A DNA stretch of 64,000 nucleotides from an uncultured delta proteobacterium (lineage in GTDB: Bacteria; Desulfobacterota; Binatia; UBA9968). The notes under the pieces were generated by a model. The model saw only the letters and a program-made list of their open reading frames with translations, had not been told where the DNA came from and ran no database searches. A program made the translations under genes and the position numbers. Where the stretch lies: assembly GCA_963816145.1 (NCBI GenBank), contig CAWFJP010000030.1, positions 384,001 through 448,000 on the forward strand, written 5' to 3'. Position 1 is the stretch's first letter; the number at the start of each line of letters is the position of its first letter. This document shows positions 24,644 through 29,206 of this stretch, piece by piece.

Positions 24644-24672
24644 TTGACATTGCGGTCGCTACAAGATAGAAG
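24644..24672 (+). promoter_or_regulatory. Putative sigma70 promoter upstream of the riboswitch
   Basis: TTGACA-N17-TAGAAG, ending about 10 nt before aptamer P1. Confidence 0.55.
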
Positions 24673-24682
24673 TTTTTCGTAA

Positions 24683-24757
24683 GTTTTGCGCGACTGGCGT
24701 CAACGTGGAATCGACCACGAGGGAGTGCAAAGCATTAAGACGGCCGAACGCCTGGGT
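24683..24757 (+). ncRNA. ZMP/ZTP (pfl) riboswitch aptamer
   Basis: P1 gttttgcgc/gtgcaaagc; GACTGGCG; P2 cgtgg/ccacg; GGGAG; 3' GCCGaacGCCTGGG, matching the pfl consensus as recalled. Confidence 0.9.
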
Positions 24758-24786
24758 CTCTTAACGATAGAGGTCCAGGTTTTTTT
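24751..24786 (+). terminator. Riboswitch expression-platform intrinsic terminator
   Basis: CCTGGGTCTCT-loop-AGAGGTCCAGG followed by a T-run; the 5' arm overlaps the aptamer 3' end. Confidence 0.85.
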
Positions 24787-24883
24787 GTGGACAACGCGCC
24801 GTAAGTTAACCGCCGACGCCTAATTTTTTCCACTTCAAATCCTGCCATAGCATGATAGTCCTTAGTTAGTATGGAGTTGAGGC

Positions 24884-26026
24884 ATGATTAAGCAATATCT
24901 TCTGTCCCCCGGTCCAACGCCGATCCCCAACGAAGTGGCCTTGGCCATGGCCGAGACAATGATTCATCACCGCACGCCGCAGTTTAACAAAATCTTCGAC
25001 GAAGCCCGTGACGGTCTCAAAAAACTTTTCGGCACCAAAAACGATGTCCTGATCCTGGCGTCTTCCGGCACCGGCGCCATGGAAGCAGCGGTGGCCAATC
25101 TGTTTTCGCCCGGCGATAAAGTCTTGGTGATCAATGGCGGTAAATTCGGCGAGCGCTGGTTGAATATTTCCAATGCCTTCGGCCTAAATCCCATCGAAAT
25201 GAAAGTCGAGTGGGGCCAGGCTGTCAAAGTCGCCGATGTCGAAAAGCAGCTCAAAGCCAATCCCGACATTCAGGGTGTGATGATTCAGGCGAGCGAGACG
25301 TCGACCACCGTACTGCACCCTATCAGAGAAATCGCCGAGTTAACCCAGAACGGCCCGCTCTTCCTGGTCGATGGCGTCACTGCCGTCGGTGTCGTCTCGC
25401 TGCCGCTCGACGAATGGGGCCTCGACGTGCTCGTCACCGGCTCGCAAAAGGCGCTCATGCTGCCGCCGGGCTTGGGCTTCATCGCACTCAGCGACCGTGC
25501 CTGGGAGAAGACCAAGAAGGCCAAGCTGCCGCGCTTTTACTTCGACCTGAACTTGGAACGCAAAAACCAGCAGAAGGGTTCCGGCGCATTCACCCCGGCG
25601 GTCTCGTTGATCTTTGGCGTGCGCGCGTCGCTGCAAATGATGCAGCGCGAAGGCTTACAGAATGTCTACGCGCGCCATGATCGCTTGTGCCGGGCGACTC
25701 GCGCCGCAGCCAAGGCCATGGGGCTAAAGCTCCTAGCGCCCGACAGCCCGAGTCCGGCGGCCACAGGAATTTATCTGCCCACGGGCATCGATGCCGACGC
25801 TGTGCTCGAATATCTGCGCGACAAGATGAACGTCACCCTGGCCGAAGGCCAAGATCAACTCAAAGGCAAAGCGATTCGCATCGCCCATATCGGCTTCATG
25901 GGCGCCTTCGACGTGATCACGGCGATTGCCGCCTTAGAGATGGCGCTCAGAAAATTCGGCGCGGAAATCCCCTTCGGCAAAGGCGTTGCCGCGGCGCAGG
26001 AAGTTTTGATGGAGGCGCTGGCTTAG
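24884..26026 (+). CDS. Class V PLP aminotransferase (serine-pyruvate/alanine-glyoxylate type; probable SerC surrogate)
   Basis: LLSPGPT, HHRT, SSGTGAMEA, GKFGERW, SETST, TGSQKALMLPPG, RIAHIG; directly upstream of serA. Confidence 0.88.
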   Translation: MIKQYLLSPGPTPIPNEVALAMAETMIHHRTPQFNKIFDEARDGLKKLFGTKNDVLILASSGTGAMEAAVANLFSPGDKVLVINGGKFGERWLNISNAFGLNPIEMKVEWGQAVKVADVEKQLKANPDIQGVMIQASETSTTVLHPIREIAELTQNGPLFLVDGVTAVGVVSLPLDEWGLDVLVTGSQKALMLPPGLGFIALSDRAWEKTKKAKLPRFYFDLNLERKNQQKGSGAFTPAVSLIFGVRASLQMMQREGLQNVYARHDRLCRATRAAAKAMGLKLLAPDSPSPAATGIYLPTGIDADAVLEYLRDKMNVTLAEGQDQLKGKAIRIAHIGFMGAFDVITAIAALEMALRKFGAEIPFGKGVAAAQEVLMEALA

Positions 26027-26183: not shown

Positions 26184-26240
26184 AACAAAACAATCGGGAC
26201 GTGATGGGTTCATCACACGATATCCTGAGAAAATCACAGC

Positions 26241-27836
26241 ATGGAAGCAAAGATGAAGATACTCGTTACCGACTCCCTGGCACCGGAAGGCCTGGCGGTT
26301 TTTCACAACGCCGAAGGTTTTGAAGTCGACGTCAAGATCGGTCTCAAACCCGACGAACTGAAAAAAATCTGCGGCGCCTACGACGGCTGGGTGATCCGTA
26401 GCGGCACCAAGATCACCGCCGAGTTGATCGACGCGGCCAGCAACCTGAAAGTCATCGGCCGCGCCGGCGTGGGTTATGAAAACATCGATGCCGACGCCGC
26501 CACCCAACGCGGCATCGTCGTCATGAACACTCCAGGCGGCAACAACGTCACCACCGGCGAGCATACCATTGCGCTGATGATGTCGATGGCGCGCCATATT
26601 CCCCAAGCCGTCGCTTCGCTCAAAGGCGGCAAGTGGGAGCGCAATAAGTTTGTCGGCGTCGAACTCTGCAACAAAACCATCGGCGTCATCGGCCTGGGCA
26701 ATGTCGGCCGTATCGTCGCCGAAAGGGCCGCCGGCTTGTGCATGAAAGTAATCGGCTTCGATCCCTTCATCGCGCCGGAAAACGTCGCCCGCATGGGCGT
26801 CGAGCCCAGCACGCTGGAAGACATTTTCACCAAGGCCGATTTCATCACCGTCCATGTGCCGCTCACCCCGGACACCCAGGGACTGATCAACAAAGCTGCT
26901 TTCGCCAAGATGAAGACCGGCGTGCGGATTATCAATTGCGCCCGCGGCGGTATCGTCGACGAGCAGGATCTCGCCGACGCAATCAAAGCCGGCAAAGTCG
27001 CCGGCGCCGCGCTCGATGTCTACGTTGACGAACCTCCCGCCGCCGAGCATCCATTAGTGAAGCTTGAGCAAGTCGTCACTACGCCGCATTTGGGCGCATC
27101 CACCGATGAGGCGCAGTTGAACGTCGCCATCGCCGTCGCCGAACAGATGGTCGACTTTCTCGCCAGAGGCGTAGTTCGCTACGCGGTCAACGTGCCGTCG
27201 GTGAGCCCGGAACTTCTCGAAGTCTTGCGCCCCTATCTCACGCTGGCAGAAAAGCTCGGCAGCCTGCACAGCCAGATGGCCGGTGCTTTGCCCAAGGAAG
27301 TTCAGGTCGAGTATCGTGGCGATGTCACTCAGTACAACGTCGCGCCATTAACCGTGGCTGTGTTAAAGGGTCTCCTGTCCCCGGTGATGGAATCCGCGGT
27401 CAACTATGTCAACGCGCCGGTGGTCGCTAAAGAGCGCGGCATCAAGATCGTCGAGTCCAAAGGCGAAGGGGTCGGCGATTTCACCAGCTCCATCGTCGTC
27501 AAGGCCAAGAACGGCAAACAGGACTTGGAAGTCGAAGGCGCGATATTCGGTGCCAAACATCCGCGCATTGTCCGCGTTAACGATTTCTATCTGGAAGCCG
27601 TGCCATCGGGCTATATCTTGATCCTGCAAAACAAGGATGTACCCGGTGTCGTCGGCGCAGTGGGAACCATCCTAGGCAACAACGGCATCAACATCGCCGG
27701 CATGGAGTTAGGCCGCAGCGAAAAGGGCGGCAACGCGATATCGTTCACGCATGTCGATGAAGCGGTCTCGAAAAAAGCCATCGACGAGCTGCTCGCCTTG
27801 CCGCAGATCGTCTCGGCGGAATTGGTCAAGCTATAG
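26241..27836 (+). CDS. serA: D-3-phosphoglycerate dehydrogenase (long form with ASB and ACT domains)
   Basis: GRAGVG, GLGNVG, INCARGG, TPHLGASTDEAQ, C-terminal DVPGVVG...INIA ACT domain. Confidence 0.95.
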   Translation: MEAKMKILVTDSLAPEGLAVFHNAEGFEVDVKIGLKPDELKKICGAYDGWVIRSGTKITAELIDAASNLKVIGRAGVGYENIDADAATQRGIVVMNTPGGNNVTTGEHTIALMMSMARHIPQAVASLKGGKWERNKFVGVELCNKTIGVIGLGNVGRIVAERAAGLCMKVIGFDPFIAPENVARMGVEPSTLEDIFTKADFITVHVPLTPDTQGLINKAAFAKMKTGVRIINCARGGIVDEQDLADAIKAGKVAGAALDVYVDEPPAAEHPLVKLEQVVTTPHLGASTDEAQLNVAIAVAEQMVDFLARGVVRYAVNVPSVSPELLEVLRPYLTLAEKLGSLHSQMAGALPKEVQVEYRGDVTQYNVAPLTVAVLKGLLSPVMESAVNYVNAPVVAKERGIKIVESKGEGVGDFTSSIVVKAKNGKQDLEVEGAIFGAKHPRIVRVNDFYLEAVPSGYILILQNKDVPGVVGAVGTILGNNGINIAGMELGRSEKGGNAISFTHVDEAVSKKAIDELLALPQIVSAELVKL

Positions 27837-27837
27837 G

Positions 27838-27910
27838 ACGATTTTTGGATTTTAGATTTTGGTTTTAGATTCCAATCCAAAATCGGCAATCCAAAATCCA
27901 AAATCAAAAT
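27838..27910. repeat. Inverted heptamer arrays filling the serA-purA spacer
   Basis: tttttggattttagattttggttttagatt / aatccaaaatcggcaatccaaaatccaaaatcaaaat-ATG. Confidence 0.8.
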
Positions 27911-29206
27911 ATGTCAAACGTCGCAATCATCGGTGCCCAATGGGGTGACGAGGGTAAAGGCAAGATCGTCGATCTGTTTACCCACGACGCCGATATCATC
28001 GTCCGTTTTCAAGGCGGCAACAACGCCGGCCATACGCTCGTGGTCAATGGCAAGAAGACCATCCTCCACCTGGTCCCGTCCGGCGCGCTCCACGCGAACA
28101 AACTTTGCGTCATCGGCAACGGCGTGGTTGTCGATCCGGAAATCCTGATCGAGGAAATCGACGCGCTCAAAACCCAAGGCCATCTCCAGAGCGACGAACA
28201 ATTACGCATCAGCGAGCAGGCCCATGTAATCATGCCCTACCACAAGGCGATCGACTTGGCGCGCGAGCGGCTGCGCGGCAAAGGCAAGATCGGCACCACC
28301 GGCCGGGGCATCGGCCCGGCATACGAAGACAAGGTCGCGCGCATCGGTATCCGCTTCATCGATTTGCTCGAGGAGGATACCTTTCGCGAGAAGCTCGAGC
28401 GCAATATTGAAGAAAAGAATTTTTACCTAAAAGCGATCCTCCAGGAACAAGCCCTCGACTTTAGCGAGATGCACGATAGCTACAGCCGCTATCGCGAGAA
28501 GCTCAAAGGCTATGTCGCCAACACAGGACTGCTGCTCGCTCAGCGCATTCACGCCGGTAAGCGCGTTTTATTCGAGGGCGCCCAAGGCACTCTCCTCGAT
28601 GTCGACCATGGCACTTATCCCTACGTCACGTCTTCGAGCACGATTACCGGCGGCGCGTGTTCGGGTTCCGGCGTCGGTCCGCAACATATCCAGCAGGTGA
28701 TCGGCATTTCCAAGGCGTATACGACAAGAGTCGGCAGTGGGCCGTTTCCCACCGAACTCGACGGGCCCGACGGCGAGACGCTTCGCAGAGAGGGCGCGGA
28801 GTTTGGCGCTACTACCGGCAGGTCGCGTCGCTGCGGCTGGTTCGACGCCGTGAGCGTGCGCCATGCCGTGCGAATGAACGGACTCACCGGCATCGCACTG
28901 ACCAAGCTCGATGTCCTCACGGGTTTCAAGAAAATCCCCATCTGCACCGCCTACCGCTACAACGACCAGAGCATCAGTGAATTCCCCGCCAGCTCGAAAG
29001 TTATGGCGGGGGCGCAGCCGGTCTATGAAGAATTGGACGGCTGGACCGAGCGCCTCGACGACGTGAGAGAATTTGCCGACCTGCCGGCCGCGGCGCAGAA
29101 ATATGTCCGGCGCATCGAAGCAGTGATCGGCACCGAGATTGTCTTGGTTTCCGTCGGCCCCGGCCGCGAGCAGACCATCGTCCTGAGAAATCCCTTCGAT
29201 CGGTAA
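27911..29206 (+). CDS. purA: Adenylosuccinate synthetase
   Basis: [47 protein letters not shown]. Confidence 0.97.

Follow-up and report, generated by a model that had tools for sequence, protein, structure and literature searches.

Riboswitches for ZMP (5-aminoimidazole-4-carboxamide ribotide, or AICAR ribotide) and ZTP, the pfl motif, are known to stand ahead of purH, glyA, folD, fhs and pfl, and neither serA, nor an aminotransferase gene, nor purA is among the genes commonly listed for them in the accessible portion of the original survey (Weinberg et al. 2010, PMC2864571), with which a 2020 review agrees in general terms (PMC7266159). Other cis-acting leader RNAs have been described ahead of serine pathway genes: the serC motif, an orphan RNA with an unknown ligand that precedes serC-serA (PMC7266159), and a tandem of a glycine riboswitch and a T-box(Ser) before serC-serA (PMC9481103). 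Here we describe a leader RNA and the three genes behind it in a 64,000-nucleotide stretch of DNA from an uncultured delta proteobacterium (GTDB lineage Bacteria; Desulfobacterota; Binatia; UBA9968), which we call the window (GenBank assembly GCA_963816145.1, contig CAWFJP010000030.1, positions 384,001 to 448,000 of the forward strand). Judged from sequence and its conservation, it is highly probable that a transcriptional ON riboswitch for ZMP/ZTP governs an operon of a non-canonical phosphoserine aminotransferase gene, serA and purA. The locus shares with known ZTP riboswitches the aptamer family, the expression platform in which a terminator overlaps the aptamer to give an ON switch, and the presumed signal, a shortage of 10-formyl-tetrahydrofolate (10-formyl-THF); the second target in its bacterial class, glyA, is the textbook one. 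It differs from them in its target, the phosphorylated serine pathway a step before glyA, together with purA, which encodes an enzyme of the branch after inosine monophosphate (IMP). The serC motif and the glycine riboswitch/T-box(Ser) tandem belong to other RNA families, with an unknown ligand, glycine and uncharged tRNA-Ser as their signals, whereas the presumed signal here is a purine/folate intermediate and not serine or glycine status.

A cmscan search of the window with all 4227 families of Rfam identified the aptamer. The sole match at gathering score lies at 24680-24764 (+) and belongs to RF01750 (ZMP/ZTP, pfl motif; 59.4 bits, gathering score 39), and its alignment spans the full model without truncation (positions 1-86 of 86; E-value: 4e-7; genome-wide E-value: 1.2e-8). 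The whole genome (7.82 Mb, 99.5% complete) holds one ZTP match, which is this element. Base pairs taken from the cmscan structure line comprise P1 (24683-24691 with 24725-24733), a two-pair extension (24694-24695 with 24721-24722), P2 (24705-24708 with 24715-24718), P3 (24741-24745 with 24755-24759) and a pseudoknot of GGCG (24696-24699) with CGCC (24749-24752), all on the + strand. The architecture is that of the ZTP class, in which the P1/P2 and P3 sub-domains are joined by a pseudoknot; here GGCG within ACUGGCG pairs with CGCC within CGCCUGGG, and all strongly conserved blocks are present (ACUGGCG, GUGGA..ACCAC, GGGAG and CCGAACGCCUGGG). The downstream genes also fall in purine or one-carbon metabolism, as is characteristic of the class, with serA and the aminotransferase gene supplying serine and purA being a purine gene. 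In an alignment of the aptamer and terminator from 62 distinct serine-type sequences of relatives, 88.7% of cells are paired in the aptamer, and both sides have changed at 9 of its pairs; the two-sided changes are seen in P1 and P2, and the pseudoknot is invariant at 4/4 pairs.

An intrinsic terminator at 24750..24787 (+), located by sequence scan, folding and pair mapping, makes up the expression platform. Its 12-bp stem (24750-24761 with 24769-24780; 6 of the 12 pairs are G-C) encloses a 7-nt loop and is followed by TTTTTTT at 24781-24787, and it is the dominant hairpin in both the minimum free energy and the centroid folds. The 5' arm of the stem (24750-24761) overlaps the 3' strands of the pseudoknot (24749-24752) and of P3 (24755-24759). 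Because the same nucleotides serve both structures, aptamer and terminator are mutually exclusive, and ligand binding should therefore give read-through. The leader thus has ON-switch geometry, with a response to ZMP/ZTP predicted. The terminator is paired in 95% of cells of the 62-sequence alignment, and a hairpin with a T-run that begins 0-1 nt after CGCCTGGG was found in 62/85 serine-type loci and in 2/12 glyA-type loci. The start codon of the first gene lies 97 nt past the T-run, which places the ribosome site outside the switch.

Upstream of the aptamer, a putative promoter at 24644..24672 (+) was read from the sequence (-35 element: TTGACA, 24644-24649; spacer: 17 nt; -10-like element: TAGAAG, 24667-24672), with an implied transcription start at about the first aptamer base. 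A generic promoter scan made no call at 24644..24672, and the -10 element has only 3/6 matches. TTGACA is invariant in 22/22 distinct sequences of relatives, inside flanks that are otherwise diverged, and a GATAgA/TAaAAG block is likewise conserved (22/22).

Three genes follow on the + strand. The first (24884..26026) encodes a class-V, AGXT/SGAT-like aminotransferase of 380 aa, assigned by family and structure matches. The second, serA (26241..27836), encodes a long-form D-3-phosphoglycerate dehydrogenase (PGDH) of 531 aa that matches TIGR01327 over the entire profile (1-525 of 525), including the C-terminal regulatory part, at 667.9 bits against a cut-off of 454. Both TIGR01327 and homologues align to serA from residue 5-6, and GGAAG stands just upstream of the ATG at 26253, so that this second ATG is perhaps the true start. 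By tblastn, serA is the sole full-length copy in the genome, the other matches being short 2-hydroxyacid dehydrogenase paralogues. The third gene, purA (27911..29206), encodes an adenylosuccinate synthase of 431 aa (NF002223: 652.7 bits, cut-off 402; TIGR00184: 562.5 bits, cut-off 395.6), and whole-genome tblastn returned one purA, one glyA and one fhs. A first-pass annotation, made from the letters of the DNA and its open reading frames, had proposed a promoter, a pfl-type aptamer and an overlapping terminator with ON-switch geometry, followed by aminotransferase, serA and purA genes on one strand. The aptamer was confirmed by the Infernal search with RF01750, the terminator by the bases that its stem and T7 hairpin share with the pseudoknot and P3, and the genes by their family matches; the promoter gained support from the invariance of TTGACA among relatives.

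The identity of the first enzyme bears directly on whether the operon is a serine module. Its best NCBIfam model is the aspartate-glyoxylate aminotransferase BhcA (330.6 bits, below the equivalog cut-off of 650), its nearest solved structure is that of a serine-glyoxylate aminotransferase (6pk1; residues 4-375; 220.8 bits), and another 32 structure chains match at an E-value of 1e-20 or better, which places it in the AGXT/SGAT group. It falls outside the SerC family, scoring 29.5-32.6 bits on TIGR01364, TIGR01366, NF003764 and NF002841 (cut-offs: 253 to 477), and TIGR01365 gave no match at an E-value of 0.001. From these scores the first gene could be taken for a glyoxylate-, aspartate- or serine-linked aminotransferase, in which case the operon would not be a complete serine module. 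We consider this improbable on four counts. No canonical serC of the types serC_1, serC_2 and serC_3 was found in the 99.5%-complete genome. The aminotransferase gene lies directly ahead of a true PGDH-type serA in 58/58 aminotransferase-first loci examined. Its distribution against that of serC_2 is strictly complementary across the 11 genomes that were tested. In family f7, five genomes whose riboswitch directly precedes serA have no aminotransferase ortholog (no match at an E-value of 1e-60) and all carry a serC_2/NF002841-type gene elsewhere (three at full length with 593-624 bits, one split by an in-frame TGA, and one truncated where its contig stops), and no serC_2 was found in 5/5 aminotransferase-bearing genomes tested, one of which shares a genus with four of the serA-first genomes. 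Finally, in a metagenome contig a canonical serC stands where the aminotransferase gene does, next to a ZTP riboswitch (L281:1788-3665; riboswitch: 59.5 bits; serC_3: 604.7 bits; then serA). From the absence of serC, the fixed order with serA, the complementarity with serC_2 and the layout of L281 we infer that the aminotransferase works as a phosphoserine aminotransferase, a stand-in for SerC from outside its family. The split serC_2 (G275:C7:340581-341695) may be a sequencing error or a pseudogene.

The Synechocystis protein sll1559, which we take to belong to the same AGXT-like group, resembles the enzyme described here in that phosphoserine transaminase activity, predicted in our case, resides in a non-SerC protein, a likeness of function. 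The protein sll1559 (SerC2) is a precedent for a phosphoserine transaminase outside the SerC family (PMC9997740). For the last step of the pathway, no canonical serB was found in the genome (best match: 30 bits). A divergently transcribed HAD-family hydrolase is encoded at 23826-24542 (-) with weak phosphoglycolate-phosphatase-like matches only, and it adjoins the riboswitch in most loci of the order. This hydrolase could be the phosphatase of the serine pathway, with a DUF1015 gene elsewhere as an alternative. The DUF1015 match in the same genome (G000:C11:157068-158097, outside the window) comes in two parts, in frames that overlap (151.6 and 115.1 bits), which suggests a frameshift or an assembly error.

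The unit of riboswitch and operon is conserved well beyond the window. A ZTP match was found in 38/41 genomes of the genus and order, the three genomes without one being 60, 88 and 67% complete. The aminotransferase gene is located just downstream of the aptamer in 30/30 loci of the order (29/29 when L017, from the unpublished genome G005, is left aside), the start of serA is visible in 28 of these 30 and the remaining two end earlier, and the order aminotransferase-serA-purA is present in all 19 loci that are long enough, a twentieth ending inside serA. In a draw from the class, 79/151 genomes carried ZTP. The class comparison comprised all 70 ZTP matches from 60 genomes outside the order and 6 from the window's own family. 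The 70 matches outside the order divide into 52 aminotransferase-first loci, 5 serA-first loci, 12 loci with glyA and 1 sub-threshold match before an open reading frame (ORF) of no family, so that the serine operon follows 57/70. The glyA loci, the other ZTP target of the class, were all confirmed by the Pfam SHMT family (12/12), and glyA consumes serine. The survey of downstream genes that the first-pass annotation had called for thus lends comparative support to its proposal that the riboswitch controls serine biosynthesis, the association being kept class-wide. DNA sequencing runs that hold at least 80% of the words of the stretch are wetland and soil metagenomes.

Whether purA belongs to the regulated transcript depends on the spacers. 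In all 55 serine-type loci of at least 4400 nt, purA is the next gene after serA. Stop-to-start gaps between the two genes (approximate values) are -1 to 12 nt in family f7, -1 to 10 nt in family f81, -1 to 22 nt in family f84 and 1 to 44 nt in family f82; in f1, the family of the window, they are 28 to 109 nt, with 74 nt in the window itself. An AT-rich palindrome built from heptads of the GATTTTG type takes up the 74-nt spacer (27840..27905, no strand assigned; identified by folding and repeat counts; free energy: -20.8 kcal/mol; z-score: -3.1). The GATTTTG/CAAAATC arms occur 8 times in the window against 0.26 expected, including at 11742-11848 and 894-908, and in 34 clusters genome-wide when single arms are counted; a strict two-arm pattern gave 0 matches genome-wide. 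The palindrome looks like a dispersed element resembling repetitive extragenic palindromes. The 214-nt spacer between the aminotransferase gene and serA holds, by the same analyses, another palindromic dispersed repeat (26126..26179, no strand assigned) with CGAAGGACACGAAG arms and a 12-bp stem, of which the genome has 269 arm matches in 194 clusters, 74 of them as inverted pairs. Since both spacers are filled by dispersed palindromes and the gaps of relatives are short, the long spacers of the window are best read as repeat insertions into an ancestrally compact operon.

A narrower reach of the riboswitch has to be weighed here, in which it controls the aminotransferase gene alone or together with serA, and most purA expression comes from a separate start within or close to the 74-nt spacer. 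Such an arrangement would suit a sole purA copy that must be expressed constitutively, it would fit the widening of the gap in the window's family, and the stable palindrome in the spacer could stop or process the transcript. Contigs from four soil metatranscriptome runs, which may also contain DNA, were compared with 24600-29300; the matching pieces (at most 390 nt, some with 0 differences) fall inside the aminotransferase gene and purA, with none at the riboswitch or across a gene junction, and so did not bridge serA and purA. On the other side, a sequence scan of the window found no promoter-like or terminator-like site in either spacer, the hairpin between serA and purA has no U-tract, which speaks against a stop of the transcript, the spacer is a dispersed repeat and hence an insertion rather than a dedicated control region, and purA follows serA without exception, at gaps as short as -1 to 12 nt in many families. 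We therefore regard separate expression of purA as rather unlikely and co-control of purA by the riboswitch in this genome as probable, and co-control is likely to be more certain still in the compact relatives than here. The first-pass annotation had offered purA as a possible member of the regulon and had named a promoter of its own as the finding that would speak against this; the generic scan gave no such promoter in the spacer, and the near-fused serA-purA pairs of most families favour membership, but the repeat hairpin in the 74-nt spacer holds co-control in the window at likely.

The following sequence of events would account for the locus. Transcription would start at the conserved sigma-70-type promoter right at the aptamer. 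With no ligand, the hairpin at 24750-24780 and its U-tract would form, and transcription would stop ahead of the first gene. When 10-formyl-THF runs short, PurH would be starved of its substrate, and ZMP (and ZTP) would accumulate and bind the aptamer; binding would lock the pseudoknot and P3, withhold the 5' arm of the terminator and let RNA polymerase read through. Read-through would raise the two committed enzymes of serine synthesis, giving more serine from 3-phosphoglycerate, and serine, as the one-carbon donor for GlyA and FolD, would restore formyl-THF. More adenylosuccinate synthase would at the same time pull IMP, the product of the blocked PurH step, towards adenosine monophosphate (AMP). 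Because AICAR also arises as a by-product of histidine synthesis from ATP, induction of purA would close a recycling loop.

Several observations weigh against this account. Covariation in the terminator is slight, with double changes at 3 pairs only among the 62 sequences, and few such changes are expected because the 5' arm doubles as aptamer sequence. The platform is not uniform, as 23/85 serine-type loci, mostly of family f7, have no T-run. As single-copy genes, serA and purA need basal expression from a leaky terminator or internal promoters, so the switch must leak or modulate above a basal level. The 214-nt and 74-nt spacers each hold a stable repeat hairpin that could attenuate, stabilise or separate transcripts, the best models for the first enzyme are those of aspartate- and serine-glyoxylate enzymes and not SerC, and the operon is kept in 20/20 loci of ZTP-less relatives, which makes the gene order independent of the riboswitch. 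The missing T-runs, together with an unremarkable fold z-score of the leader against shuffled sequences (-1.07), could also mean that the pfl-like RNA has decayed or taken on another role and lost its response to ZMP/ZTP, or that it acts at translation. We give this very little credence, since decay is opposed by a full-length match that exceeds the cut-off by 20 bits and retains every strongly conserved block, and by retention of the aptamer over a class whose proteins have diverged to about 55-60% identity, and a translational switch is opposed by the distance of 97 nt from T-run to start codon. A transcriptional ON switch that responds to ZMP/ZTP thus remains the reading that we favour.

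Outside the class the ZTP element is rare. In a draw of 150 other genomes from the phylum, ZTP was present in 7, of which two belong to the class of the window; the downstream gene was fhs in three and glyA, serA, a monomeric isocitrate dehydrogenase gene and a BenE transporter gene in one each. Among 151 genomes of the phylum of G325, a metagenome-assembled genome titled Myxococcota, one had ZTP, before glyA, and none was found in three distant genomes with homologues of the aminotransferase. A loose pattern for the ZTP core, run over metagenome contigs, yielded at least 80 loci as an arbitrary sample. Among the matches listed, cmscan confirmed ZTP in 43 of 80 loci, of which 6 have too little downstream sequence for a gene to be named. 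The first downstream genes of the other 37, again among the matches listed, were purH-type in 15 (7 with AICARFT first, 7 with an IMP-cyclohydrolase-like gene first and 1 after a PARG-like ORF), glyA in 12, a class-V aminotransferase gene of the window type in 3, a pterin-binding enzyme gene in 2, serC_3 followed by serA in 1, BenE in 1, DJ-1 in 1 and a gene of no family in 2. Uncommon contexts among all loci studied include the monomeric isocitrate dehydrogenase (L101), the BenE-family transporters (L102 and L244), a DJ-1/PfpI protein (L287) and the microbial PARG-like ORF ahead of purH (L236).

Serine-pathway contexts account for 4/37 of the nameable metagenome loci among the matches listed, and the serine pathway is thus a minority but recurrent target of ZTP, in at least two unrelated lineages. 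The second lineage is represented by L281, in which, as in the window, the gene next to the ZTP aptamer is that of a phosphoserine aminotransferase (a predicted one in the window) and serA comes after it; L281 differs in that the aminotransferase is a true SerC and in that the contig ends inside serA. It is an independent lineage with predicted ZTP control of the serine pathway. A full-text search for ZTP, ZMP or pfl with serA, serC, serine biosynthesis or purA found no published link, an earlier listing of serA as a minor target being possible in Kim et al. 2015 or in the supplements of Weinberg et al. 2010, and the mentions of serA or serC in the retrieved passages of PMC7266159, PMC12667848, PMC9481103 and PMC10882993 concern other RNAs or bead reagents. 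The description of the regulon as atypical in the first-pass annotation accordingly holds for the literature consulted, and does not hold for nature, where the arrangement is class-wide and recurs in the metagenomes.

Relatives that keep the operon and have no ZTP element carry leaders of other kinds, in which no ZTP remnant was matched even at E-values up to 1. In family f80 (L337-L341, L352-L362), a promoter-like box and a variable hairpin come first in 15/16 leaders, and after them stand GGGGTCTGGCG, a hairpin that covaries, CACCAGGC and T8, a motif that can also be written GGGGUCUGGCG-hairpin-CACCAGGC-U8. The exact motif occurs once per genome in 12/17 f80 genomes and in 0/134 other genomes of the class (the unpublished G267 is included in the tally), and it gave no Rfam match even at E-values up to 1. 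The f80 leader may be an unrecognised attenuator or riboswitch. In genus g8 of family f6 (L333, L364-L366, L368-L371), the leaders have a purine-rich AAGGAGGGAGGGAGAG followed by a terminator, GCCTGGATACGGGGAGCCCATCCGGGC and 5-6 T, with no Rfam match. Conserved leader-terminators of the ZTP-less families may be unrecognised sensors for the same pathway. In one f6 genome, an Acido-Lenti-1 sRNA match (46.2 bits, cut-off 37) was found beyond purA at L336:222-267 (-).

The riboswitch is real and of the standard ZTP kind; its gene context makes sense, is conserved class-wide and was not found in print, and a ZTP-serine-purA operon does not overturn current understanding. It would extend the logic of the ZTP alarmone one step upstream, so that a shortage of formyl-folate would call for the making of serine, besides its conversion by glyA, and for the passage of IMP towards AMP. 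A broader proposition, which we advance tentatively and think doubtful as it stands, is that throughout the class the cell's only purA and only true serA form a single conserved operon under the ZMP/ZTP alarmone, with ZMP governing both the one-carbon supply at its source, from 3-phosphoglycerate to serine, and the step by which IMP derived from AICAR re-enters the adenine pool. If true, the second of these links would tie the recycling of a histidine/purine by-product to AMP synthesis, which has not been proposed for this riboswitch class. With the aminotransferase, nature would offer a clean case in which SerC has been displaced non-orthologously by an AGXT-like enzyme, a case backed by the complementary distribution of the two genes. 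The unclassified leader-terminators of the ZTP-less families are a concrete place to seek a new cis-regulator, and the riboswitch itself could serve as a reporter of folate stress in a little-studied lineage of soils and wetlands.

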